Source of the DNA: an uncultured Chloroflexia bacterium
GTDB lineage: Bacteria > Chloroflexota > Limnocylindria > Limnocylindrales > CSP1-4
Length of the DNA: 64,000 bases
Assembly: GCA_963841545.1 (NCBI GenBank)
Contig: CAWJDE010000013.1
Span: 830 to 64,829 of the forward strand
Direction: 5' to 3'
The notes under the pieces are model-generated. The model was not told the DNA's origin. It saw only the letters and a list, made by a program, of their open reading frames with translations, and did not search any database. Positions 1 to 40,790 of this stretch are shown here, piece after piece. The number at the start of each line of letters is the position of its first letter. The stretch's first letter is position 1. Both the position numbers and the translations under genes were made by a program.

Positions 1-585
1 AACGAGGTGCGCACGGAGTCGTTCGTGTTCGGGACACGCCTGACCCGGGTCACCCGCCTGATGCGCGACCGCGACCGCGATCGCGCCCTGACCCGGGTCG
101 CCGACACGGTCACCGACTGGGCCGGTGGGACGCGGATCGGGGAGTCGTTCCGCGACTTCAACCACCGCTGGGCCCGCCGGACGCTGCGCACGTCGGGCGT
201 GGTGATCGTGGTCTCGGACGGGTGGGATCGTGGCGACCCCGCGCTGGTGGCCGCCGAGACCGCCCGCCTGCGGCGCAACTGCCACCGGCTGGTGTGGCTC
301 AACCCCCTGGCCTCGACCCCCGGCTACCAGCCGCTGGCGGCCGGCATGAAGGCCGCCTACCCGTTCATCGACGACTTCCTGCCCGCCGGCACCCTGGCGT
401 CCCTCGAGCGGCTGGGCCAGGTCCTCGCCGGCGCCTCGCAGCAGGGATCGTCGCGCCGGGGCACGGCCAGCACCCGGGCGACGAGCGTCGCGCCCTCGCT
501 CGGCCTGTTCGCACCCGAGGCCGAGGTGCCCCGCCCGCTGGACGGGGAGCCGACCGACGCGGCACGGGCCCGCCCCCTGGGCTGA
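1..585 (+). CDS. vWA-domain CoxE-like CO-dehydrogenase accessory protein (5' truncated at window edge)
   Basis: C-terminal vWA/CoxE-like sequence (…VIVVSDGWDRGD…LVWLNPL…GYQP…). Frame is open from nt 1. It is followed by the xdhC and cox structural genes. Confidence 0.65.
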   Translation, partial: NEVRTESFVFGTRLTRVTRLMRDRDRDRALTRVADTVTDWAGGTRIGESFRDFNHRWARRTLRTSGVVIVVSDGWDRGDPALVAAETARLRRNCHRLVWLNPLASTPGYQPLAAGMKAAYPFIDDFLPAGTLASLERLGQVLAGASQQGSSRRGTASTRATSVAPSLGLFAPEAEVPRPLDGEPTDAARARPLG

Positions 586-642: not shown

Positions 643-1812
643 ATGCAGGAGCTGCTGGACTCGCTGGACGGCTGGCGCGCCGAGGGCGCCGGCGTCGGAC
701 GGGCGGTCGTGGTGCGCACCTTCGGCAGCGCGCCGCGGCCCGAGGGCGCCGTGCTGCTGGCGACCGACGATGGGCGGATCGCGGGGTCCGTCTCGGGCGG
801 CTGCGTCGAGGGCGCGGCGGCGGAGGAGATCCACGCGTCGAGGGCCACCGGCCGGGATCGGGTGATCCGCTATGGCATCAGCGACGAGCAGGCATGGGAC
901 GTGGGTCTCGCGTGTGGCGGAACGATCGACGTCCTGATCTCGCCCCGCGTGCCCGAAGCCGCGATCGTGGCCGCGCGCGAGACGCACGAGGGCCGGGGCG
1001 ACGGTCGGGCGATCGTGACCCCGCTGCCGCCGGACGCGCCGCCACCCTCGTTCGGCGCGCACCAGCCGGGCGCGGGAGCGCCGCCGGCCGACGTCCTGGT
1101 CGTCCACGACGACGGGCGCCTCGATGGCAGCCTGGGCGATCCGGCGGCGGATGCGGAGCTCGCTGCCGCGGCCTCGGCGTCGCTTGCCAAGGGCGTGTCG
1201 CGGACGGTGGAGATCGCGGGACGCCAGCTGTTCATCGAGTCGTACCCGGTGCGGCCGCGGCTGGTCGTGGTAGGCGCGGTCGAGGTCGCCCGATCGCTGG
1301 TGCGGCTGGCGGCCGAGCTGGGCTACGAGACGGTGGTCATCGACGGCCGTGCGGCGTTCGCGACCGAGGCCCGCTTTCCCGACGTCGACCGGCTCCTGGT
1401 CGGGTGGCCGGACGAGGTCGCGGACGAGATCGGGCTGGGGCCGGCCGATGCGGTCGCCGTCCTGACCCACGACGTCAAGTTCGACGAGCCGGCGATCGTC
1501 GAGGCGCTCCGCCGCGGCTGCCGGTACGTGGGCGCCGTCGGGTCGCGCAAGACCCAGGCGGATCGCCGCGCGCGGCTGCTCGCCGCCGGCGTCGCGGCCG
1601 CCGACCTCGATCGCCTTCGCGGCCCGATCGGGCTCGACCTCGGCGGACGGTTGCCGGCCGAGACGGCGCTCGCGATCATGGCCGAGGTGGTCGCGGAACG
1701 TCGAGCCGGCACGGGGCGCCCGATGCGCGACCTGGCGCGAGCTCGCGAGGCGGCCCCGGGCCCGCCGGCGGCGCCGTCGCAGACGGGCTCGATGGCAGCT
1801 CCGGCCGGATGA
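643..1812 (+). CDS. XdhC/CoxI family molybdoenzyme maturation factor
   Basis: N-terminal XdhC_CoxI domain (GSAPRPEGA…DGRIAGSVSGGCVEG) plus a C-terminal Rossmann-like XdhC_C domain. Stop overlaps the next start (ATGA). Confidence 0.8.
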   Translation: MQELLDSLDGWRAEGAGVGRAVVVRTFGSAPRPEGAVLLATDDGRIAGSVSGGCVEGAAAEEIHASRATGRDRVIRYGISDEQAWDVGLACGGTIDVLISPRVPEAAIVAARETHEGRGDGRAIVTPLPPDAPPPSFGAHQPGAGAPPADVLVVHDDGRLDGSLGDPAADAELAAAASASLAKGVSRTVEIAGRQLFIESYPVRPRLVVVGAVEVARSLVRLAAELGYETVVIDGRAAFATEARFPDVDRLLVGWPDEVADEIGLGPADAVAVLTHDVKFDEPAIVEALRRGCRYVGAVGSRKTQADRRARLLAAGVAAADLDRLRGPIGLDLGGRLPAETALAIMAEVVAERRAGTGRPMRDLARAREAAPGPPAAPSQTGSMAAPAG

Positions 1813-2408
1813 GGGTCGTCGGCGTCGTGCTCGCCGCGGGCGCGAGCTCGCGCTTCGGGTCGCCAAAGCTGCTGGCCGCGCTCGACGGCCGTCCGGTGCT
1901 GCAGCACGTGCTCGACACGCTGGCGGCCGGCGGGCCGCGGGACGTCGTGGTGGTGCTCGGGTCGGATTCCGCCGCGATCGAGGCGCGGGTCAGGTGGCGG
2001 TCCGAGCGTCGCGTCGTGAACCCCCGACCGGGCGACGGCCTGTCCAGCTCGCTCCGGATCGGGCTCGACGCCGCGGCCGAGGATCCGGCGGCCGACGCGG
2101 TGCTGATCGTGCTCGGCGACCAGCCGTTCCTGCGGCCGGACGCCGTGGAGGCAGTGCTCGCGATGGCCGGGTCGACCGACCGGCCGATCGTCCGCGCCCG
2201 CTACCCGGACGACGACGCCCCGAACCCGGTGCTGGTCCGTCGCGCCGCGTGGACGCTGGCGGCGGGAATCAGCGGCGACCGCGGGCTGGGGCCGCTGCTC
2301 GCGGAGCACCCGGGGCTGGTCGCCGAAGCGCCCGCCGCCGGCCGCAACCCCGACGTCGACACGCCCGACGACCTGGCCCGGCTGTCGGGCGTATCGTGGC
2401 CTCGATGA
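1809..2408 (+). CDS. MobA-like nucleotidyltransferase (molybdenum cofactor cytidylyltransferase MocA-like)
   Basis: Motif VVLAAGASSRFGSPKLL is typical of MobA/MocA NTP_transf_3. Its ATG at 1809 overlaps the xdhC stop. The longer track ORF 222..2408 is an out-of-frame composite. Confidence 0.7.
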   Translation: MRVVGVVLAAGASSRFGSPKLLAALDGRPVLQHVLDTLAAGGPRDVVVVLGSDSAAIEARVRWRSERRVVNPRPGDGLSSSLRIGLDAAAEDPAADAVLIVLGDQPFLRPDAVEAVLAMAGSTDRPIVRARYPDDDAPNPVLVRRAAWTLAAGISGDRGLGPLLAEHPGLVAEAPAAGRNPDVDTPDDLARLSGVSWPR

Positions 2409-3262
2409 ACGTACCGGACGCCACCACCGCGCAACGCCTCGAGGCCGCCTGGTCCTCGCGCGTGCTCGCCAACCGCGAGCAGGCCGAGCGCCTTCGCGAG
2501 ACGCAGCTGCCCGACTTCTATGCCCCCGTCACGTCGCAGTTCGTGTCCGATCCCCGCCGGACCGACGAGCCGGCCCTCGACGTCCTGCGCGCCTCGGCCC
2601 GGCCCGATGAGGCCTGGCTGGACATCGGCGCGGGCGCCGGTCGGTACGCGCTGCCGCTCGCGCTGGCCGTGCGCGAGGTCGTGGCCGTCGAGCCGTCGCC
2701 GGGGATGCGCCAGGCGCTGCGCGCGGGCATCGCCGAGCACGGGATCGGCAACCTCCGGGTCGTGGCCGGCGCCTGGCCGGAGGCTGCGGCGCAGCTCGGG
2801 CCGATGCCCGCGGTCGACGTCGCGCTCATCGCCCACGTCGCCTACGACATCGAGCCCATCGAGCCCTTCCTCGACGCGATGGACGCCGCGGTCCGCGAGC
2901 GATGCATCGCGATCCTCACCGATCGCAGCCCGGCATCGGTCGCCGACCCGTTGTGGCCGCTGGTCCATGGCGAGGAGCGCGTGCCGTTGCCCGCGCTGCC
3001 CGAGCTGCTGGAGGTGCTCCTGGCCCGCGGCTGCCGGACCGAGGTGATCCGGGTCGAGCGACCACCGCGGACGTTCGACTCGGTCGACGCGCTCGCCGCC
3101 CTCCTGCGCCGGCAGCTGTTCATCGCCGAAGGTGGCGAGAAGGACCTGCACTTCCGGGCGATCCTGCCCGACCTGATCGCCCCGATCGATGGCGGCTGGA
3201 CGCTGGCCACGCCACCGGCGGGGTCGCTCGGGATCGTGACCTGGGCGCCGCGCCAGGCGTAG
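2405..3262 (+). CDS. class I SAM-dependent methyltransferase
   Basis: Motif-I-like DIGAGAGRYALPLA followed by VVAVEPSPGM. ATG at 2405 overlaps the upstream stop, implying translational coupling. Confidence 0.55.
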   Translation: MNVPDATTAQRLEAAWSSRVLANREQAERLRETQLPDFYAPVTSQFVSDPRRTDEPALDVLRASARPDEAWLDIGAGAGRYALPLALAVREVVAVEPSPGMRQALRAGIAEHGIGNLRVVAGAWPEAAAQLGPMPAVDVALIAHVAYDIEPIEPFLDAMDAAVRERCIAILTDRSPASVADPLWPLVHGEERVPLPALPELLEVLLARGCRTEVIRVERPPRTFDSVDALAALLRRQLFIAEGGEKDLHFRAILPDLIAPIDGGWTLATPPAGSLGIVTWAPRQA

Positions 3263-3513: not shown

Positions 3514-4386
3514 ATGATCCCCGGTCAGTTCGAGTACGTCCGTCCGGGCTCCCTCGACGAGGCGCTCCGGATCCTGCACGATCGAGAGGGGGAGGCCAAG
3601 GTCCTTTCGGGCGGCTACAGCCTGTTGCCGCTGATCAAGCTCCGCCTGGCCCAGCCGGCCCTGCTGGTCGACATCCAGGCCATCGGGGGCCTCGACGCGA
3701 TCGCACACGCCGACGACGGCTGGCGGATCGGCGCTCGCGCGACGCACCGCCGGATCCACGAGCACGACGCCCTCGCCGCCGCCTGGCCGATCATGCGCGA
3801 GACGGCCGGCGGGATCGGCGATCCGCAGGTGCGCAACTGGGGGACGATCGGCGGCTCGTGCGCCCACGCCGACCCCAGCTCGGACTGGCCGGCCGTGACC
3901 CAGGCGTTGGGCGGCTCGTTCGTGCTGCGCAGCGCCGGCGGTGAGCGCGTGGTGCCGGCCCGCGGCTTCTTCATCGACACGTTCCAGACCGGCATCGAGC
4001 TTGCCGAGATCCTGACCGAGGTGCGGATCCCGCACGCCGCCGCTCGCACCGGCAGCGCCTACGTCAAGCTCGAGCGTCGGGCGGGCGACTTCGCGACGGT
4101 CGGCGCAGCCGCGGTGGTGAGCCTCGCCGCGGACGGCACGGTGGAGCGGGTCGGGATCGGGCTGACGGCCGTCAGCGACGCCCCGTTCGCCGCGACCGAT
4201 GCGGAGGCGGCGCTGGCCGGCGCCGCACCGACCGAGGAGGCGATCCGGGCGGCCGCCTCCGCCGCCGCGGCGCAGTCGCGACCCGTGTCCGACACCCACG
4301 GTCCCGCCGACTACAAGCGGGCCATGGTCCGCGAGATCACGGCCCGGGCGCTGCGCCTGGCCACATCCCGGGCGCAGGGCGCCTGA
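3514..4386 (+). CDS. coxM: CO dehydrogenase medium subunit (FAD-binding, CoxM)
   Basis: FAD_binding_5 / CO_deh_flav_C architecture ([15 protein letters not shown]…GTIGGS). GGAGG RBS lies 8 nt upstream of the ATG at 3514. Confidence 0.85.
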
Positions 4387-4399
4387 GCGGAGGCGGACG

Positions 4400-4915
4400 A
4401 TGACAACGACGCACATCTCGGTCACCGTCAACGGACAGGCGCGCGAGGCCGACGTCGAGCCCCGGCTCCTGCTCGTCCACCTCCTGCGCGATGTGTTCGG
4501 CCTGACCGGCACCCACACGGGCTGCGACACGAGCAACTGCGGCGCGTGCACCGTGCACGTCAACGGCGAGAGCGCCAAGTCATGCACGATGCTCGCCGTC
4601 CAGGCCGACGGCGCCGCGATCACCACCATCGAGGGCATGGAGCAGGGCGGCAAGCTCCACCCGCTCCAGCAGGCGTTCTGGGACCAGCACGGCCTCCAGT
4701 GCGGGTTCTGCACCCCCGGCATGATCATGCAGACGAGCTGGCTGCTCGGCCAGAACGCGGATCCAAGCGAGCAGGAGATCCGCGAGGGCATCGCGGGCAA
4801 CCTCTGCCGCTGCACGGGGTACGTGAACATCGTCAAGGCGGTCCAGCAGGCGGCCGCCGAGCTCGGGGCGGCGCAGGGCGAACCAGCGCCCGAAGCCGCC
4901 GCGGCGTCGGCCTGA
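4400..4915 (+). CDS. coxS: CO dehydrogenase small subunit (2Fe-2S, CoxS)
   Basis: Both [2Fe-2S] motifs are present: [11 protein letters not shown] and CGFCTPGM…CRCTGY. Confidence 0.9.
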
Positions 4916-4935: not shown

Positions 4936-7305
4936 ATGACGGAGGCACAGGCGCCCACCACGACCGCCGAGGTCTCGGGCATGGGCCACTCGATGAAGCG
5001 CAAGGAGGACCCGCGCTTCATCCGCGGCCAGGGCCAGTACATCGAGGACGTCGTCCTGCCGAACATGGTCTGGATGGACATCGTCCGCAGCCCGTACGCG
5101 CACGCGAAGATCAAGTCCATCGACGCCAGCGAGGCCCTCAAGATGCCGGGCGTGCTGGCGGTGATCACCGGGAAGGACCTCGAGAAGGCGGGGCTCCACT
5201 GGATGCCCACGCTCGCCGGCGACAAGCAGATGGTGCTGCCGGTGGACACGGTCATGTACCAGGCCCAGGAGGTCGCCGCGGTCATCGCGGAGACCCGCTA
5301 CCAGGCGGCCGACGCGATCCAGGCGGTGTACGTCGACTACGAGCCGCTGCCGGTCGTGATCGATCCGTTCAAGGCGCTCGAGCCGGACGCACCCGTCCTG
5401 CGCCCTGACCGCGGCCCGGACAAGGCGAACAATCACATCTGGCACTGGGAGTCGGGCGACCAGTCGGCCACCGACGCCGCCCTGGCGGCCTCGGACCGGG
5501 TCGTCCCGATCGACGTCTACATTCCCCGGATCCACGTCTCCTCGATCGAGACCTGCGGCTGCATCGCGGACTGGAATCCCGTCCGCGCCCACCTCGACTT
5601 CCACGTCACGAGCCAGGCGCCCCACGTCTACCGCACGGTCATCAGCCTGGTCTCCGGCATCCCCGAGTCGAGCATCCGCGTCAAGACCCACGACATCGGC
5701 GGCGGGTTCGGGGGCAAGGTGCCCGTCTACCCGGGCTACGTCTGTGCGATCGTCGCGTCGCTCACGCTCGGCCGGCCGGTCAAGTGGATCGAGGACCGCT
5801 CGGAGAACCTGCAGGCGGACTCGTTCGCCCGCGACTACCACGTCCACGCCGAGCTGGGCCTCGACAACGACGGCACGATCAGGGGCCTGCGCGTCAAGAC
5901 GCTCGCCGACCACGGCTACAGCGACGCCGCGGCCGACCCGTCCAAGTTCCCGGCGGGGCTGTTCAACGTGATCACCGGCTCCTACGTCGTCCCGCAGGCG
6001 TTCGTCGAGGTCGATGCCGCCTACACCAACAAGCCGCCCGGTGGCGTCGCCTACCGCTGCAGCTTCCGGGTCACCGAAGCGGTTCACACGATCGAGCGGC
6101 TGGTCGACAAGGCGGCCGGCGAGATCGGGATGGACCCGGCCGAGTTCCGTCTCAAGAACTTCATCCGCAAGGACCAGTTCCCGTACCACACGCCGACCGG
6201 CTGGGACTACGACTCGGGCGACTACCACACCGCGCTGCGCAAGGCGCTCGACCTCATCGGTTACCAGGACCTGCGCAAGGAGCAGGCCGAGAAGCGCGCC
6301 CGCGGCGAGCTCATGGGCATCGGGATCAGCAGCTTCACCGAGATCGTGGGTGCGGGTCCCTCGCACACGTTCGACATCATCGGCATCAAGATGTTCGATT
6401 CGGCCGAGCTCCGGGTGCACCCGACCGGCTCCGCGATCCTGCGCCTGGGCGTCCAGAGCCAGGGGCAGGGCCACGAGACGACGTACGCGCAGATCGTCGC
6501 GGAGGAGCTGGGCATCCCGGCGTCCAAGGTCGTGGTCGAGGAGGGCGACACGGACACCGCGCCGTACGGCCTCGGCACCTACGCGTCGCGGTCCACGCCC
6601 GTCGCCGGGGCCGCGACCGCCGTCGCTGCCCGCAAGATCCGGGAGAAGACCCGGCTGCTGGCGGCGCATCTGCTCGAGTGCTCGCCCGACGACCTCGAGT
6701 GGTCCAACGGCCAGTGGAGCGTCAAGGGCTCGCCCGACCGGGTCAAGACCATCGCCGAGCTCGCGTTCGCCGCGTACACCAACCTGCCCGACGGGATGGA
6801 GGCGGGCCTCGAGGCGGTCGACTACTACGACCCGCCCAACCTGACCTTCCCGTTCGGCAGCTACATCGCGGTCGTCGACATCGACAAGGGCACCGGGCAG
6901 GTCACCGTCCGCCGCTTCGTGGCCGTGGACGACTGCGGCAACATCATCAACCCGATGATCGTGGACGGGCAGATCCACGGCGGCCTGACGATGGGCCTGG
7001 CGCCCTCGCTGTACGAGGAGATCCCGTACGACGAGAACGGCAACAACCTCGCCGGGACGTTCATGGACTACCTGCTGCCGACGGCGGTGGAGACCCCGGC
7101 CTGGGAGACCGCCAAGACGATCACCCCCTCGCCACACCATCCGCTGGGCGCCAAGGGAGTGGGGGAGTCGGCCACCGTCGGTGCACCGCCCGCGATCGCC
7201 AACGCGGTCGTGGACGCCCTGTCGCACCTCGGCGTCACCCACATCGACATCCCGCTCACGCCGCACAAGGTGTGGCAGGTGCTCCACGAGAAGGGCGTGG
7301 CCTGA
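4936..7305 (+). CDS. coxL: CO dehydrogenase large subunit (Mo-Cu, form I, CoxL)
   Basis: Molybdopterin dehydrogenase large-subunit fold. The form-I CODH active-site signature VAYRCSFR is seen directly in the translation. GGAAGGAG RBS upstream. Confidence 0.9.
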   Translation: MTEAQAPTTTAEVSGMGHSMKRKEDPRFIRGQGQYIEDVVLPNMVWMDIVRSPYAHAKIKSIDASEALKMPGVLAVITGKDLEKAGLHWMPTLAGDKQMVLPVDTVMYQAQEVAAVIAETRYQAADAIQAVYVDYEPLPVVIDPFKALEPDAPVLRPDRGPDKANNHIWHWESGDQSATDAALAASDRVVPIDVYIPRIHVSSIETCGCIADWNPVRAHLDFHVTSQAPHVYRTVISLVSGIPESSIRVKTHDIGGGFGGKVPVYPGYVCAIVASLTLGRPVKWIEDRSENLQADSFARDYHVHAELGLDNDGTIRGLRVKTLADHGYSDAAADPSKFPAGLFNVITGSYVVPQAFVEVDAAYTNKPPGGVAYRCSFRVTEAVHTIERLVDKAAGEIGMDPAEFRLKNFIRKDQFPYHTPTGWDYDSGDYHTALRKALDLIGYQDLRKEQAEKRARGELMGIGISSFTEIVGAGPSHTFDIIGIKMFDSAELRVHPTGSAILRLGVQSQGQGHETTYAQIVAEELGIPASKVVVEEGDTDTAPYGLGTYASRSTPVAGAATAVAARKIREKTRLLAAHLLECSPDDLEWSNGQWSVKGSPDRVKTIAELAFAAYTNLPDGMEAGLEAVDYYDPPNLTFPFGSYIAVVDIDKGTGQVTVRRFVAVDDCGNIINPMIVDGQIHGGLTMGLAPSLYEEIPYDENGNNLAGTFMDYLLPTAVETPAWETAKTITPSPHHPLGAKGVGESATVGAPPAIANAVVDALSHLGVTHIDIPLTPHKVWQVLHEKGVA

Positions 7306-7310
7306 TCGCC

Positions 7311-8363
7311 GTGACCGGACGGAGCCTGTTCAGCCGGGTCACCGAGCTCGAAGCCGGCGGCTCGACGTTTGCCATCGCCACCGTGGTGGCGGTCCAGCGC
7401 CCGACCTCGGCCCGGCCGGGCGCCATGGGGATCGTCCACCCGGACGGCACGATCGAGGGCTGGGTCGGCGGCAGCTGCGCCCAGCCCGTGGTCGTCCGCG
7501 AGGCGCTGCGGGCGCTCGTGGACGGCCACCCGCGCCTGCTTCGGCTGTCGAAGGAGGCGCCCGCAGAGGGCCGCCGAGGCGACGGCGTCGTCGAGCTCGT
7601 CATGAGCTGCCATTCGGGCGGCACCCTGGAGATCTACGTGGAGCCGCATCTTCCCGCGCCCTCGCTGTGGCTGGCCGGCACGACGCCCATCGTCGGCGCC
7701 CTGGCCAGTCTCGGCGCCGCCACCGGGTGGCGGGTGTCGGTGTTCGACCCCATCGCCGACGCCGACGCCTTCCCCGACGCCGAGCGGGTGTCCACCCGGA
7801 CCGCGCTCGGTCGCATCGACCCGGAGGTGTCGCCGTACGTCGTGGTCGCCACCCAGGGCGTGTGGGACGAGGAGGCCCTGGCCGCGGCCCTCAAGCGGGA
7901 CGTGGCCTATGTCGGGCTGGTGACGTCGCCAACCCGGGCGCGGGTCATCCGCGCCTGGCTGCGCGAGGAGGCCGGCATCCCCGAGGAGCGGCTCGCGGCG
8001 CTGCGCGCGCCGTGCGGGCTCGACCTGGGCGCCGAGACGCCCGAGGAGATCGCGCTCTCGATCCTGGCCGAGCTGGTCACCGTCCGGCGGGGCCGGGCGG
8101 ACTTCGTGGCCCGTCCCGGGCCGGCCACGCTGGCCGGCGACAGCGCGGATGCGGCCGCGGCCGCCGAGGGTGCCGGGGATGCCGCGGTGGATGACATCGT
8201 CCTGCTCGACCCCGTCTGCGGCATGACCGTCGACCGCGCCCGCGCCCGGCACCTCGCCGAGCACGACGGCGTGGTCTACGCGTTCTGCTCGATGGGCTGC
8301 CGGACCGCGTTCATCCGCGAGCCCGGCGCGTTCGTCCCCGGACCGGCGACCGCGGAAGCCTGA
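7311..8363 (+). CDS. XdhC/CoxF-like maturation factor fused to a C-terminal YHS (TRASH) metal-binding domain
   Basis: N-terminal XdhC domain (LFSRVTELEAGGSTFAIATVV…GSCAQP). C-terminal DPVCGMTVD…YAFCSMGCRTAF matches the YHS consensus. GTG start at 7311 directly follows the coxL stop; the upstream part of track ORF 5784..8363 is antisense noise. Confidence 0.75.
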   Translation: MTGRSLFSRVTELEAGGSTFAIATVVAVQRPTSARPGAMGIVHPDGTIEGWVGGSCAQPVVVREALRALVDGHPRLLRLSKEAPAEGRRGDGVVELVMSCHSGGTLEIYVEPHLPAPSLWLAGTTPIVGALASLGAATGWRVSVFDPIADADAFPDAERVSTRTALGRIDPEVSPYVVVATQGVWDEEALAAALKRDVAYVGLVTSPTRARVIRAWLREEAGIPEERLAALRAPCGLDLGAETPEEIALSILAELVTVRRGRADFVARPGPATLAGDSADAAAAAEGAGDAAVDDIVLLDPVCGMTVDRARARHLAEHDGVVYAFCSMGCRTAFIREPGAFVPGPATAEA

Positions 8364-8440: not shown

Positions 8441-8890
8441 GTGATGCAGTTCAAGGGCACCGTCCAGATCAGCGCTTCCCGGGACCGCGTATGGGCGTTC
8501 CTCATGGATCCCGACGCGGTCGGCGCGTGCGGCCCGGGCGTCGAGTCGATCGAGGTGATCGACGCCGATCACTTCAAGGCGAAGGCGAAGGTCGGCGTCG
8601 GGTTCATCTCGGCCCGGTTCGTGGTCGACATGACCGTCGCCGAGCGCAACGAGCCCGAGCTCGCGGTGCTCAAGGCCCACGGCCAGGCACCCGGCTCGGC
8701 CGTCGACGCCACGGCGGACATGCGGCTGTCCGGCCCGGTCGAGGGGCCGACGACGATGGACTGGTCCGCGGACGTGGCCATCGCGGGCACGCTGGCCTCG
8801 GTCGGCGCCCGGCTCATCGAGGGCACCGCCAACAAGATGATCGGCCAGACGTTCGACTGCATCCGGACCAGGCTCGAGGCGGCGGGCTGA
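8441..8890 (+). CDS. coxG: CoxG family SRPBCC protein
   Basis: Typical CoxG N-terminus (MQFKGTVQISASRDRVWAFLMDPDAV) and size (149 aa). Confidence 0.8.
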   Translation: MMQFKGTVQISASRDRVWAFLMDPDAVGACGPGVESIEVIDADHFKAKAKVGVGFISARFVVDMTVAERNEPELAVLKAHGQAPGSAVDATADMRLSGPVEGPTTMDWSADVAIAGTLASVGARLIEGTANKMIGQTFDCIRTRLEAAG

Positions 8891-19899: not shown

Positions 19900-20040
19900 C
19901 CGCCCCGACCTCGCCACGCTCGCCGGCCGGGCCTGGCCGTCGTGCCCGCGGCTGCCGCCGGCGACCCGTTTGACGCTTTCGAGGCGCCGTGCCACGCTGG
20001 CGCCCCGAGTCGCAACCGCCTGCATCCCGGAGTCCCCGTC

Positions 20041-21519
20041 GTGGTTCGCTCGCCCTCCGGCCGATCCCGCGCCGCCAGTCCCTCAGCCGGCTCTGACGCC
20101 AGCCGTCCGGACACGCTCGGCTCGCTGCGGTCGTCCGGCTGGCTGCCGCGGACGGTCAAGGAGGAGCTGCGCGCCAACCTGCTGACGCGGCTCGCGGCCG
20201 GAGACCGCCTGTTCGGCACCATCGTCGGCTACGAGGCGACCGTCATTCCCGCGATCGAGAACGCCATCGTCGCGGGCCAGGACATCGTGTTCCTGGGTGA
20301 GCGGGGGCAGGCCAAGACGCGGCTGGCCCGGATGCTCGTCGACCTGCTCGACGAGTGGCTCCCCGTCGTCCGGGGCGGCGAGCTCAACGACGACCCGTTC
20401 GCGCCGATCAGCGCCGCCGCCCGCGCGATCCTGGCCGAGCACGGCGACCGGACGCCGATCGAGTGGATCCCCCGGGATCGCCGCTACGCCGAGAAGCTGG
20501 CCACGCCCGACATCACGATCGCCGACCTCATCGGCGAGGTCGACCCGATCCGGGTGGCGGAGGGTCGCTACCTGTCCGACGAGCTGGTCCTCCACTATGG
20601 CCTGATCCCGCGCGCCAACCGCGGGATCTTCGCCGTCAACGAGCTGCCGGACCTCGCGGAGCGGATCCAGGTGGGCCTGCTCAACATCCTCGAGGAGCGG
20701 GACGTCCAGGTCCGTGGCTTTCAGATCCGGCTGCCCCTCGACCTGTTCGTGGTCGCCTCGGCCAACCCCGAGGACTACACCAGCCGCGGCCGGATCATCA
20801 CGCCGCTCAAGGACCGGCTGGGATCGCAGATCCGAACGCATTACCCGCGCTCGCTCGAGCACGAGGTGGCGATCGTCCGCCAGGAGAAGCACACGTTCCC
20901 GTCCCGTCCGGACATCCCGCCCGTGGTGGTGCCGGCGTTCATGGAGGAGCTGGTCGCCGAGCTGACCCACCTCGCCCGGAGATCGCCCGACATCAGCCAG
21001 CGGAGCGGCGTGTCGGTCCGGGTCTCGGTCGCCAACGTCGAGGTGCTCGAAGCCGCGGCGATCCGCCGGGCCGTCCGGCTGGGTGAGCCGGTGGGTGCGC
21101 CCCGGATCTCGGACCTGGGCGCGCTGCTGGCCTCGACGGCGGGCAAGGTCGAGGTCGAGACGGTGGGCGAGGACACGCCCGAGGAGCGGATCGTCGAGCG
21201 GCTGGTGACCAAGGCCGTGTTCGCCACCTTCAACCGCCACGTCCTGCTCGACCAGCTGGCGCCGGTCATCGAGGCGTTCGAGGATGGGCTCGTGGTGGAA
21301 ACGGGCGAGCTCGTGCCATCGCGTACCTACGTGCGCTGGATGCGCGAGATCCCGGGCCTGCGCGAGGCGGTCGTGCGGCTGGGCACGTTCGACGCCACGG
21401 ATGGCGCGCAGGACCCGGCCCTGGTCGCGTCGGCGGTGGAGTTCCTGCTCGAGGGCCTCCACCTCCAGCGGCGCGTCAACAAGGATCGCGGCGCCGCGGG
21501 CGTGACCTACCGCCGATGA
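20041..21519 (+). CDS. MoxR/ChlI-like AAA+ ATPase with degenerate Walker B
   Basis: Walker A GERGQAKT. Walker B region reads IFAVNELPD (Asn in the Asp position). MoxR-like sensor region VVASANPED…DRL. Start chosen at GTG 20041 (GGAG RBS); the track start 19942 lies in a low-GC3 leader. Confidence 0.7.
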   Translation: MVRSPSGRSRAASPSAGSDASRPDTLGSLRSSGWLPRTVKEELRANLLTRLAAGDRLFGTIVGYEATVIPAIENAIVAGQDIVFLGERGQAKTRLARMLVDLLDEWLPVVRGGELNDDPFAPISAAARAILAEHGDRTPIEWIPRDRRYAEKLATPDITIADLIGEVDPIRVAEGRYLSDELVLHYGLIPRANRGIFAVNELPDLAERIQVGLLNILEERDVQVRGFQIRLPLDLFVVASANPEDYTSRGRIITPLKDRLGSQIRTHYPRSLEHEVAIVRQEKHTFPSRPDIPPVVVPAFMEELVAELTHLARRSPDISQRSGVSVRVSVANVEVLEAAAIRRAVRLGEPVGAPRISDLGALLASTAGKVEVETVGEDTPEERIVERLVTKAVFATFNRHVLLDQLAPVIEAFEDGLVVETGELVPSRTYVRWMREIPGLREAVVRLGTFDATDGAQDPALVASAVEFLLEGLHLQRRVNKDRGAAGVTYRR

Positions 21520-21523
21520 GCCG

Positions 21524-23764
21524 ATGGCGTTCCTGACGCCCGATCCACGCCATCTCCGCCGCGACGACGGCCGGTCGTTCGGCGGCGACCCGGCGCTGGT
21601 GCCCGCCGCGCGCTACCGCCGCTGGGACGGCAGCCAGACGCTGCCCGACTTCACGGCCGACGAGATCATGGATGCGCTCGCCGACGACCTCCTCGAGAGC
21701 GGCGACCTGCGCGAGGCGCTGCGCAAGCTGGCGCGGCGCGGGCTCCGCAGCCAGGACCCGTCGCGCTCGGACCTGCGCGGGCTTCGGGACCTGCTGGAGC
21801 GGCTGCGAGCCAGGCGCGAAGAGACGCTCGAGCAGGGATCGCTCTCGGATCCGCTGGCCGACGTGCGCCGGGAGCTGGACGAGATCGTGGCAACCGAGCG
21901 CGCAGGGGTGGAGCGCCGGCTCGATGCGACGGAGCCCGGCGCCGAGCCGGACGCGGGTGCCGAGGGTGAGCCCGGACCCCGTGCCGAGCCGGACGCGGGT
22001 GCCGAGGGTGAGCCCGAACCCGCCGGACCCGCCGGACCCGCCGCGCCTCCGGCCGCCACCGCCGCGGGTGATGACCGGGGCGTCGACCCCGCGCTCCGGC
22101 GCATGGCCCGCGACATCGCGATGCGCCGGCTCGATCGGCTCGACGCGCTGCCGCACGACACGGGCGCCCGGATCCGGGCCCTGGACGACTACGACTTCCT
22201 GGAGCCCGAGGCCCGCGAGCGGTTCGACGCCCTCCTCGATCGCCTCCGCAGCGGGGTGCTCGACCGGCTGTCGGCCGGGCTCTCGGACGCAGTCAGGAAT
22301 CTCCGGCCGGAGGACCTCGACGCACAGCGGGCAATGGTCCGCGATCTCAACGCGCTGCTCGACCGTCGCCTCGCGGGGGACGAGCCCGCGCAGGCCGACG
22401 TCGACGACTTCCTCCGCCGGCACGGCGCGTTCTTCCCCGGTGCCGCCACCCTCGACGACGTCGTCGAGCAGCTCGCCGAGCGGATGGCCGCGATGCAGTC
22501 GCTGCTCCGCTCCCTGTCGCCCGAGCAGCGAGCGGAGCTGCAGGGCACGATCGACGCGCTGCTCCGGGACGACCGCCTCCGGTGGGATCTCGCGCGGCTG
22601 GCGTCGAGCCTCGATCAGCTCCTGCCGAACGGGCTGGGCGAGCCGATGCCGTTTGCCGGTGATCGGAGGCTCGGTCTCGAGACGGCGCTCGAGACGATCG
22701 AGCAGCTGCAGGCGATGGACCGGCTCGAGAACGACCTCGACGGCGCGACCCGGTCCGGCGACCTGTCCGGCGTCGATCGCGCCGACCTCCGCGAGCTGCT
22801 GGGCGACGATGCCGTCCGGGACCTCGACGCGCTGGAGGACCTGGCCGACCGCCTCGAGGCGGCGGGCTACGTCGAGCGGGCCGGCGACCGGCTCGAGCTC
22901 GGTCCCCGCGGCACCCGGCGCATCGGCCAGAAGGTGCTCGACGAGCTGTTCGCCCGACTCGGGCAGGATGCGCTGGGCGGCCACCGCCAGGAGCGCTCCG
23001 GCCGGGGCGGCGAGCGCGAGGAGACGTCGAAGCCGTTCGAGTTCGGGGATCCGTTCCATCTCGACCTGCGCTCGACCATGGCGAACGCGTTGACGCGGGA
23101 GGAGAATGCCCCGCCGCGCCCCGCCGGGGCCGGCGCGATCACCTTGCGGGCGGACGACTTCGAGGTCTTCCGCACCGAGCGGAACACGTCGGTGTCCACC
23201 GTGCTGCTGGTCGACATGAGCCGGTCGATGCTGCTGCGCGGCTGCTACCTCGCGGCCAAGAAGGTCGCGCTGGCACTCGAGACGCTCATCAGGACCCAGT
23301 TCCCGAGGGATCGCCTGGCCATCGTCGGCTTCGCCTACGACGCGCGCGAGATCCGGCCTGAAGCCCTCGCCAGCCTCTCGTGGCACGGCTACGAGTACGG
23401 CACCAACCTTCAGCACGGCCTCCAGGTTGCCCGCCGGATCCTCGCTCGCCAGCGCTCGGCGAATCGCGAGATCGTGGTGATCACCGACGGCGAGCCGACC
23501 GCGCACGTCGAGCACGGCGAGGTCGAGTTCAACTACCCGCCGACGAGCCGCACGATCCGGGCGACGTTGCGCGAGGTGGCGCGGTGCACGCGCGAGGGCA
23601 TCACGATCAACACGTTCATGCTCGAGCGCACGCCGGCCCTGACCGACTTCGTCGGCCTGGTCACCGAGCTCAACCGCGGCCGCGCCTTCTACGCCGAGCC
23701 AGAGCGACTCGGCGAGTACGTCCTCGTCGATTTCGTCCAGCGCCGCCGGAAGCGAGTGTCGTAG
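21524..23764 (+). CDS. vWA domain-containing protein (MoxR partner), 746 aa with long helical N-region
   Basis: C-terminal vWA domain with a MIDAS-like motif (LLVDMSRSM…ITDGEPT). Starts 5 nt after the ATPase stop. An internal 36-bp duplication is present. Confidence 0.75.
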   Translation: MAFLTPDPRHLRRDDGRSFGGDPALVPAARYRRWDGSQTLPDFTADEIMDALADDLLESGDLREALRKLARRGLRSQDPSRSDLRGLRDLLERLRARREETLEQGSLSDPLADVRRELDEIVATERAGVERRLDATEPGAEPDAGAEGEPGPRAEPDAGAEGEPEPAGPAGPAAPPAATAAGDDRGVDPALRRMARDIAMRRLDRLDALPHDTGARIRALDDYDFLEPEARERFDALLDRLRSGVLDRLSAGLSDAVRNLRPEDLDAQRAMVRDLNALLDRRLAGDEPAQADVDDFLRRHGAFFPGAATLDDVVEQLAERMAAMQSLLRSLSPEQRAELQGTIDALLRDDRLRWDLARLASSLDQLLPNGLGEPMPFAGDRRLGLETALETIEQLQAMDRLENDLDGATRSGDLSGVDRADLRELLGDDAVRDLDALEDLADRLEAAGYVERAGDRLELGPRGTRRIGQKVLDELFARLGQDALGGHRQERSGRGGEREETSKPFEFGDPFHLDLRSTMANALTREENAPPRPAGAGAITLRADDFEVFRTERNTSVSTVLLVDMSRSMLLRGCYLAAKKVALALETLIRTQFPRDRLAIVGFAYDAREIRPEALASLSWHGYEYGTNLQHGLQVARRILARQRSANREIVVITDGEPTAHVEHGEVEFNYPPTSRTIRATLREVARCTREGITINTFMLERTPALTDFVGLVTELNRGRAFYAEPERLGEYVLVDFVQRRRKRVS
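21941..22020. repeat. internal tandem duplication (2 x about 40 bp) inside the vWA gene, encoding EPDAGAEGEPxP twice
   Basis: gccgagccggacgcgggtgccgagggtgagcccg occurs twice in direct tandem. Confidence 0.8.
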
Positions 23765-40702: not shown

Positions 40703-40790
40703 TGGTAGGCGAGGTCGGGATCGAACCGACACGTCCCTCACGGGACACCGGCTCCTAAGGCCGGCGCGTCTGCCATTCCGCCACTCGCCC
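40703..40790 (-). tRNA. tRNA-Leu (anticodon UAG), long variable arm, CCA encoded
   Basis: Reverse complement reads GGGCGAGUGGCGGAAUGGCAGACGCGCCGGCCUUAGGAGCCGG…GGUUCGAUCCCGACCUCGCCUACCA. D-loop, anticodon loop CUUAGGA, T-arm GGUUCGAUCC and a 7-bp acceptor stem with G1-U72. Confidence 0.8.

Follow-up and report, generated by a model that had tools for sequence, protein, structure and literature searches.

Atmospheric carbon monoxide (CO) oxidisers are globally abundant, and to our knowledge the only model for how copper (Cu) reaches the buried [CuSMoO2] centre of molybdenum-copper CO dehydrogenase (Mo-Cu CODH) is built on mutants of Oligotropha carboxidovorans and on short sequence motifs in its CoxF protein. 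XdhC, CoxI and PaoD are general chaperones for the insertion of the molybdenum cofactor (Moco) into the xanthine oxidase family. XdhC proteins bind and protect sulfurated Moco (PMC2997495), and CODH from coxE or coxF (coxF::km) mutants of O. carboxidovorans contains Mo and stoichiometric sulfane sulfur and no Cu, which led to CoxF being proposed as an escort of Cu (Pelzmann 2014, PMC4240915). CoxD acts in sulfuration in the same system, so that only CoxE and CoxF belong to the Cu step (PMC4240915). A first-pass annotation of the DNA described here had credited CoxD, CoxE and CoxF alike with Cu insertion, which is a little too broad in its inclusion of CoxD. This DNA, the window, is a stretch of 64,000 nucleotides with 72% G+C from contig CAWJDE010000013.1 of an uncultured Chloroflexia bacterium. 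It contains a form-I cox cluster in which the gene directly behind coxL (here coxF-YHS) encodes, as the annotation had proposed, an XdhC/CoxF-like maturation factor fused to a YHS domain.

The coxF-YHS gene is a single reading frame of 350 codons, running from GTG to TGA without an internal stop and starting after a gap of 5 nucleotides behind coxL. In its four-part product, an XdhC_CoxI N-domain and an XdhC Rossmann domain are followed by a disordered linker and the YHS domain (Table 1), and the protein belongs to the XdhC family by Pfam matches to both core domains above their gathering scores. It lies outside the equivalog groups XdhC_rel_AOR (NF045664; 117 bits, cut-off 350) and xanthine_xdhC (TIGR02964; 38 bits, cut-off 161.6). 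The protein ends in ...DPVCGMTVDRARARHLAEHDGVVYAFCSMGCRTAFIREPGAFVPGPATAEA, and the C-terminal motif DPVCGMTVD...YAFCSMGCRTAF from which the metal-binding module had originally been recognized is present. In the full-length protein the YHS profile PF04945 (gathering score 30.3) scores 31.9 bits (E 1.3e-7), and with the C-terminal 77 amino acids (aa) searched alone it scores 35.7 bits (E 8.8e-9), so the YHS assignment survives the profile search of the C-terminus. The domain contains the D-x2-C ... C-x3-C set of putative ligands of YHS domains, assigned by analogy with the adenylyl cyclase of Mycobacterium phlei, for whose YHS domain Asp and three Cys have been proposed as ligands (Linder 2015, PMC4626032). 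The alternative label of the first-pass annotation, TRASH, does not apply in its strict sense: the four-Cys signature C-x2-C-x19-22-C-x3-C is broken by DPVC, which puts Asp first and leaves three Cys, and the Pfam TRASH models PF24273 and PF08394 gave no match to the fusion protein at E<=0.01, although they match 51 and 4 of 118 homologues, respectively. Asp as first ligand is usual for YHS domains.

The AlphaFold2 (AF2) model of the full-length protein has a mean predicted local distance difference test (pLDDT) score of 84.9, with a confident core (Rossmann domain above 90). A disordered stretch at aa 266-295 (below 50), within a linker of about 30-40 aa, leads to a YHS domain (aa 297-340) that is folded at 83-91 in this model and is also confident when modelled by itself, with a range of 83-95 over the two models. 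Folded core, disordered tether and folded YHS domain together form the predicted layout of a swinging-arm module. The best solved matches to this model in Foldseek are 2WE8 and 3ON5 (E 2e-18); 2WE8, the best Protein Data Bank (PDB) match to the whole model, was considered as a structure of the CoxF type and turned out to be of the long CoxI-like type.

A fusion of this kind could also arise from a missed stop or a frameshift in annotation or assembly that joins two genes. This possibility is refuted by a continuous reading frame, by an identical architecture across hundreds of assemblies made independently, complete genomes from cultured organisms among them, and by a coding signature and purifying selection that run across the junction. 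The XdhC_CoxI, XdhC_C and YHS architecture is found in 119 of the 120 best clusters at 90% identity. A scan with one genome per species recovered 80 loci at 69-86% identity, all from metagenome-assembled genomes of Chloroflexota, mostly labelled Limnocylindria or Limnocylindrales, the class from which the window itself probably derives. All 80 keep the order coxM-coxS-coxL-xdhC/YHS-coxG wherever the contig reaches, usually with coxE-xdhC1-mocA-methyltransferase upstream and coxD before coxE. These orthologues are least like the window protein in the linker (identity 0.53, with indels) and match it more closely in the Rossmann domain (0.73), the YHS domain (0.81) and the N-domain (0.85). D300, C303, M305, C326 and C330 are invariant in 80/80; among 118 diverse representatives, the three YHS Cys and C56 of the N-domain are each conserved in at least 90%, and D300 in most. 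The YHS codons have an in-frame GC3 (G+C at third codon positions) of 1.00, and the ratio of nonsynonymous to synonymous substitution rates (dN/dS) has nearly the same median in YHS (0.225) and the core (0.231), with a higher one in the linker (0.333). Purifying selection on the YHS codons is thus as strong as on the core.

Compared with the proteins of O. carboxidovorans, the fusion protein reaches 143 bits with CoxF (41.5% identity over aa 10-260) but only 63 bits with CoxI (26%), and its best match in pHCG3 is the 280-aa gene behind coxD-coxE, which is coxF. A neighbour-joining tree of the cores, calculated without bootstrap and used solely for the split between CoxF and CoxI, places the fusion protein with CoxF and apart from CoxI-like sequences, and places the product of xdhC1, a second XdhC gene of the window, with CoxI. 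The xdhC1 product matches the second XdhC of Paraburkholderia (158 bits) better than it matches CoxF and also pairs with the second XdhC of Natronorubrum. Based on this comparison, the fusion protein is the orthologue of CoxF and not of CoxI. With the long-type xdhC1 grouping with CoxI and the fusion with CoxF, the window has the division of labour of the model organism: a CoxI-like XdhC adjoins mocA, and a CoxF-like XdhC adjoins the structural genes.

CoxF of O. carboxidovorans (Afipia) OM5 shares with the window protein the XdhC_CoxI and Rossmann core and its place in a form-I cox cluster; the coxF-YHS gene is accompanied by coxE and coxG in the window and by coxD upstream in its relatives. 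The two proteins also share a motif around C100 (MSCHSGGT in the window), which matches the M107CPSHGTM suggested as a Cu site by Pelzmann et al. (PMC4240915). This motif was considered as specific for CoxF and rejected; because the CoxI-like paralogue encoded by xdhC1 has the equivalent LACGGT, it is a feature of the whole XdhC family. However, the CoxF chain of O. carboxidovorans stops some 15 residues past the Rossmann domain, without Cys and without YHS, and its gene lies behind coxE, whereas the window gene lies directly behind coxL with coxD and coxE upstream. XdhC of Rhodobacter capsulatus, CoxI and PaoD have the same two-domain core fold with GGxC and CxxGG motifs, but serve copper-free enzymes and have no metal-binding extension.

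The locus scan with a narrow alignment returned only Limnocylindria relatives, and contexts from other phyla were taken from PLSDB and from the encoding contigs. All 118 full-length representatives of 50%-identity clusters closest to the query have the XdhC core; 103 match YHS, one carries HMA, and five have an N-terminal MobA-like (MocA) domain as well. The best 120 matches of a profile search all bear YHS, some of them as two or three tandem copies, and include Anaerolineales, Chloroflexia, Terriglobales, Bryobacteraceae, Korobacteraceae and Calditrichaeota. XdhC-YHS proteins occur in at least five phyla (Chloroflexota, Acidobacteriota, Betaproteobacteria, Deinococcota and haloarchaea), and all their contexts that were examined are form-I (Mo-Cu) cox clusters. 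In two Acidobacteriota the gene occupies the exact CoxF slot (coxMSL-G-D-E-XdhC-YHS, as in coxMSL-G-D-E-F). Paraburkholderia aromaticivorans has coxMSL-G-D-E followed by XdhC-YHS, mocA and a second xdhC, and Thermomicrobium roseum has coxMSL and then XdhC-YHS. The gene stands beside form-I coxL in Deinococcus sp. AJ005 and Natronorubrum bangense and 6 kb from coxMSL in an Anaerolineales locus. A CoxF-type gene with three YHS copies is likewise found in a form-I context (locus L086), and nine genes encoding MocA-XdhC-YHS fusions (loci L090-L098) neighbour form-I coxMSLG and coxDE and are preceded by another XdhC gene. The active-site motif AYRCSFR was present in 78 of the first 89 loci, that is, in all that reach the coxL active-site region, the other 11 contigs ending short of it; later loci agree.

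Plasmid records show the same pattern. Among 259 PLSDB records with a CoxL-like gene, 19 have identities of at least 55.7% (form I) and the rest at most 43.8%, leaving a clean gap, and the 19 form-I records are also the 19 best XdhC matches. YHS is carried by 6/19 (Thermomicrobium, Deinococcus, Paraburkholderia, two Caballeronia and Natronorubrum). No XdhC-YHS was found in the 240 records with only non-form-I CoxL homologues. In loci that have both kinds of cluster, the XdhC beside the non-form-I coxMSL paralogue has no YHS, and the CoxI-like paralogue never carries a YHS, HMA or Cys-rich module in the loci examined. This distribution bears on whether the module cysteines could instead be a persulfide relay that builds the mu-sulfido bridge or protects the terminal Mo=S. 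XdhC proteins do cooperate with cysteine desulfurases and shield the sulfido ligand (PMC2997495, PMC4240915), and Cys-rich tails could carry persulfides. Such a function would, however, be needed by all sulfurated Mo hydroxylases, yet the module is found only with form I and never on the CoxI-like paralogue; CODH from the coxF mutant keeps stoichiometric sulfane sulfur and lacks Cu (PMC4240915), and HMA and YHS are metal-binding folds. A role in sulfur transfer is therefore very unlikely.

The C-terminal module itself varies on a constant core. A C-terminal HMA domain (MxCxxC; GMSCAHC) takes the place of YHS in at least 35 clusters, one of them from Rhodothermus marinus, and three genomes show the order coxMSL-G-D-E-[XdhC-HMA]-mocA with form-I coxL. 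Like the window protein, these fusions combine a CoxF-type core with a C-terminal thiolate metal module in a form-I cluster, here behind coxE, and differ in having the ferredoxin-like HMA fold with MxCxxC, as in CopZ/Atx1-type metallochaperones, instead of a YHS ribbon. In further close relatives the C-terminus is a CC-rich tail, e.g. ...DCCSEP...SCCGGEK, and two of these proteins are encoded directly behind the CoxE C-terminus. Such tails were counted only if manually inspected, as the regular-expression class 'Cysrich' mislabels some true YHS variants (for example P0459, which is nearly identical to the YHS-bearing P0462). Tandem YHS proteins have two or three copies (P0271-P0321, 380-441 aa). 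The CoxF slot thus carries no module, one to three YHS domains, an HMA domain or a Cys-rich tail, and YHS, HMA and Cys-rich tails are all thiolate-rich binders of soft metals.

HMA domains are classic carrier modules, as in CopZ/Atx1-type proteins, and their occurrence at the same position speaks against the YHS domain being a sensor that switches CoxF on when Cu is present, with another protein supplying the metal. This alternative takes its appeal from the fact that many CoxF proteins function without a module and from the sole biochemical study of a YHS domain, in which the domain gave the M. phlei adenylyl cyclase a regulatory, Cu-specific activation, with Zn, Fe, Co and Ni without effect (PMC4626032). 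The YHS domains of the cyclase and of P1B-type Cu-ATPases resemble the window domain in length (about 45 aa) and in the D-x2-C ... C-x3-C signature, but are fused to a signalling enzyme or a pump and not to a cofactor-maturation chaperone. The linker of the cyclase has 8 aa against about 30 disordered residues in the fusion protein, and a long disordered tether, like the tandem copies, suits capture and delivery better than allostery. A sensor role is thus quite unlikely.

We return to Cu delivery, the role that the first-pass annotation had put forward. The survey of architectures strengthens it: delivery of Cu(I) is well supported on comparative grounds by the conserved architecture, the orthology with CoxF, the restriction to form-I contexts and the exchange of YHS for HMA or Cys-rich modules elsewhere, and from these we infer that the YHS domain would bind and donate Cu(I). 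Cu(I) inhibits copper-free members of the enzyme family in vivo (PMC10434068), which makes stray Cu in the vicinity of Moco harmful. From its homology to XdhC and CoxF, the core of the fusion protein would engage the Moco site of CoxL and shield the Mo centre in its sulfurated state. Held by a disordered tether of about 30 aa, the YHS domain could offer an Asp/Cys3 (plus Met) site with which to capture cytoplasmic Cu(I) and keep it from other targets. It may then pass Cu(I) to the Mo-SH centre of the folded apo-CODH while the XdhC core is docked, or alternatively hand it first to the conserved Cys56 and Cys100 of the core, and this handover would complete the [CuSMoO2] cluster. Capture of Cu(I) by the tethered domain and its delivery to the Mo-SH site of CoxL with the core docked is, on balance, what the module probably does.

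Several observations weigh against Cu delivery. The contexts surveyed amount to about 110 loci, and in 13 of the 19 form-I plasmid loci (Alphaproteobacteria and Nonomuraea, O. carboxidovorans included) CoxF has no C-terminal module, so Cu insertion as such does not depend on one. Most alphaproteobacterial CoxF proteins lack the module, which is thus dispensable in some lineages. The MocA-XdhC-YHS triple fusions link the protein to synthesis or handling of the molybdopterin cytosine dinucleotide cofactor as much as to Cu. YHS domains of the Deinococcus type lack the first Cys; in Deinococcus sp. AJ005 the domain is degenerate (SPVDGE...YYFTCANC), with the first Cys replaced by Asp and the Cys spacing shifted, so that the ligand set differs in that lineage. 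When the PDB was searched by sequence and fold for a YHS relative with bound metal, all matches (phenol/toluene hydroxylase alpha subunits and eL24) were insignificant, and none of the solved structures among them is a Cu-bound YHS. The nearest solved YHS folds belong to the alpha subunits of diiron hydroxylases, which have no known Cu role (PMC4626032).

These structural relatives leave room for the YHS domain as a structural, zinc-ribbon-like module that holds no Cu and serves for docking to CoxE, CoxD, CoxL or the membrane. TRASH/YHS domains adopt a treble-clef-like metal-ribbon fold, whose nearest solved relatives are eL24 and the C-terminal YHS of phenol/toluene hydroxylase alpha subunits, the latter with no known Cu role (PMC4626032). 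A pure docking module would not, however, be expected to be swapped for HMA or for unstructured CC tails, nor to be multiplied two- to threefold, and its restriction to the Cu-containing enzyme class would be left unexplained. We therefore consider docking unlikely. Extending Cu delivery to all module types, YHS, HMA and CC tails could be dedicated Cu(I) donors for Mo-Cu CODH. CoxF would then be a two-part metallochaperone, with a core that docks to and guards Mo-SH and a module that delivers, and the module-free CoxF of O. carboxidovorans would be a derived form served by another Cu source. We give this wider proposal an even chance.

A CoxF protein with a tethered metal module is not categorically new, as the architecture is already visible in databases, where annotation pipelines label some of the fusion proteins 'YHS domain-containing protein'; it bears directly on Cu delivery to Mo-Cu CODH. 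Literature searches for XdhC with YHS, CODH with YHS and CoxF with TRASH found no paper discussing the fusion, although most subscription journals lay outside the search and a prior mention is possible. The presence of soft-metal modules on CoxF, and on no other XdhC paralogue, is independent comparative evidence for CoxF as the Cu-handling step. The proteins of T. roseum, P. aromaticivorans and R. marinus are tractable for Cu(I)-binding and transfer assays, and such modules could aid the heterologous production of active Mo-Cu CODH. In annotation, the module is a marker that helps to tell true CoxF from other XdhC genes.

Table 1 Features of the window and of related loci (positions refer to the window unless a locus is named)
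Feature	Position	Strand	Support or context
coxE, 3' part (VWA_CoxE); gene extends past window start	7-585	+	PF05762, 136 bits
xdhC1, long CoxI-like XdhC paralogue, 389 aa	643-1812	+	XdhC_CoxI and XdhC_C alone, no C-terminal metal module
mocA-like MobA-family nucleotidyltransferase (molybdopterin cytidylyltransferase type)	1809-2408	+	PF12804, 114.6 bits
SAM-methyltransferase-like gene	2405-3262	+	Methyltransf_25/11/12 matches
coxM (FAD subunit)	3514-4386	+	FAD_binding_5 and CO_deh_flav_C
coxS (2x[2Fe-2S] subunit)	4400-4915	+	Fer2_2 and Fer2
coxL, form-I Mo-Cu CODH large subunit	4936-7305	+	TIGR02416, 1205 bits (cut-off 991)
coxF-YHS (XdhC/CoxF-type maturation factor and YHS)	7311-8363	+	domain and orthology searches
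XdhC_CoxI N-domain, with invariant C56	7353-7544 (aa 15-78)	+	PF02625, 63.9 bits (gathering score 24.3)
XdhC Rossmann domain (XdhC_C)	7665-8075 (aa 119-255)	+	PF13478, 106.9 bits (gathering score 29.7)
Ala/Gly/Asp-rich flexible linker	8106-8195 (aa 266-295)	+	AF2 pLDDT <50, least conserved part
YHS domain	8208-8336 (aa 300-342)	+	PF04945 above gathering score
Putative YHS ligands D300, C303, C326, C330, plus M305	C303 8217-8219; C326 8286-8288; C330 8298-8300	+	
coxG (SRPBCC)	8441-8890	+	PF06240 COXG, 116.8 bits
AAA+ gene (AAA_5 / Mg-chelatase-like)	19942-21519	+	
VWA_2 gene	21506-23764	+	
tRNA-Leu	40703-40790	-	
Deinococcus sp. AJ005, XdhC with degenerate YHS	L004 7992-9053		also P0267
CoxF-type gene with three YHS copies	L086 9001-10317		form-I context
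DUF364 (PF04016) gene, metagenomic locus	L086 10314-11483		directly behind the gene with three YHS copies
DUF364 gene, N. bangense	L005 11499-12419		behind coxE
MocA-XdhC-YHS gene, example of nine	L090 2465-4108		beside form-I coxMSLG and coxDE

The coxL of the window is assigned to form I by its TIGR02416 score together with the AYXCSFR loop, here present as VAYRCSFR. Upstream, the stop of xdhC1 and the start of mocA overlap by 4 nucleotides, which suggests translational coupling, and the pairing of the two genes recurs in other phyla. The methyltransferase-like gene keeps its place between mocA and coxM in most of the 80 Limnocylindria cox loci. The DUF364 genes of the metagenomic locus with three YHS copies and of N. 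bangense may represent another accessory factor of some form-I clusters. About 11 kb downstream of the cox genes, the window has overlapping AAA+ and VWA_2 genes that resemble a MoxR-VWA pair but are far larger than CoxD and CoxE. The tRNA-Leu gene is the sole Rfam or ARAGORN match within the 64 kb.

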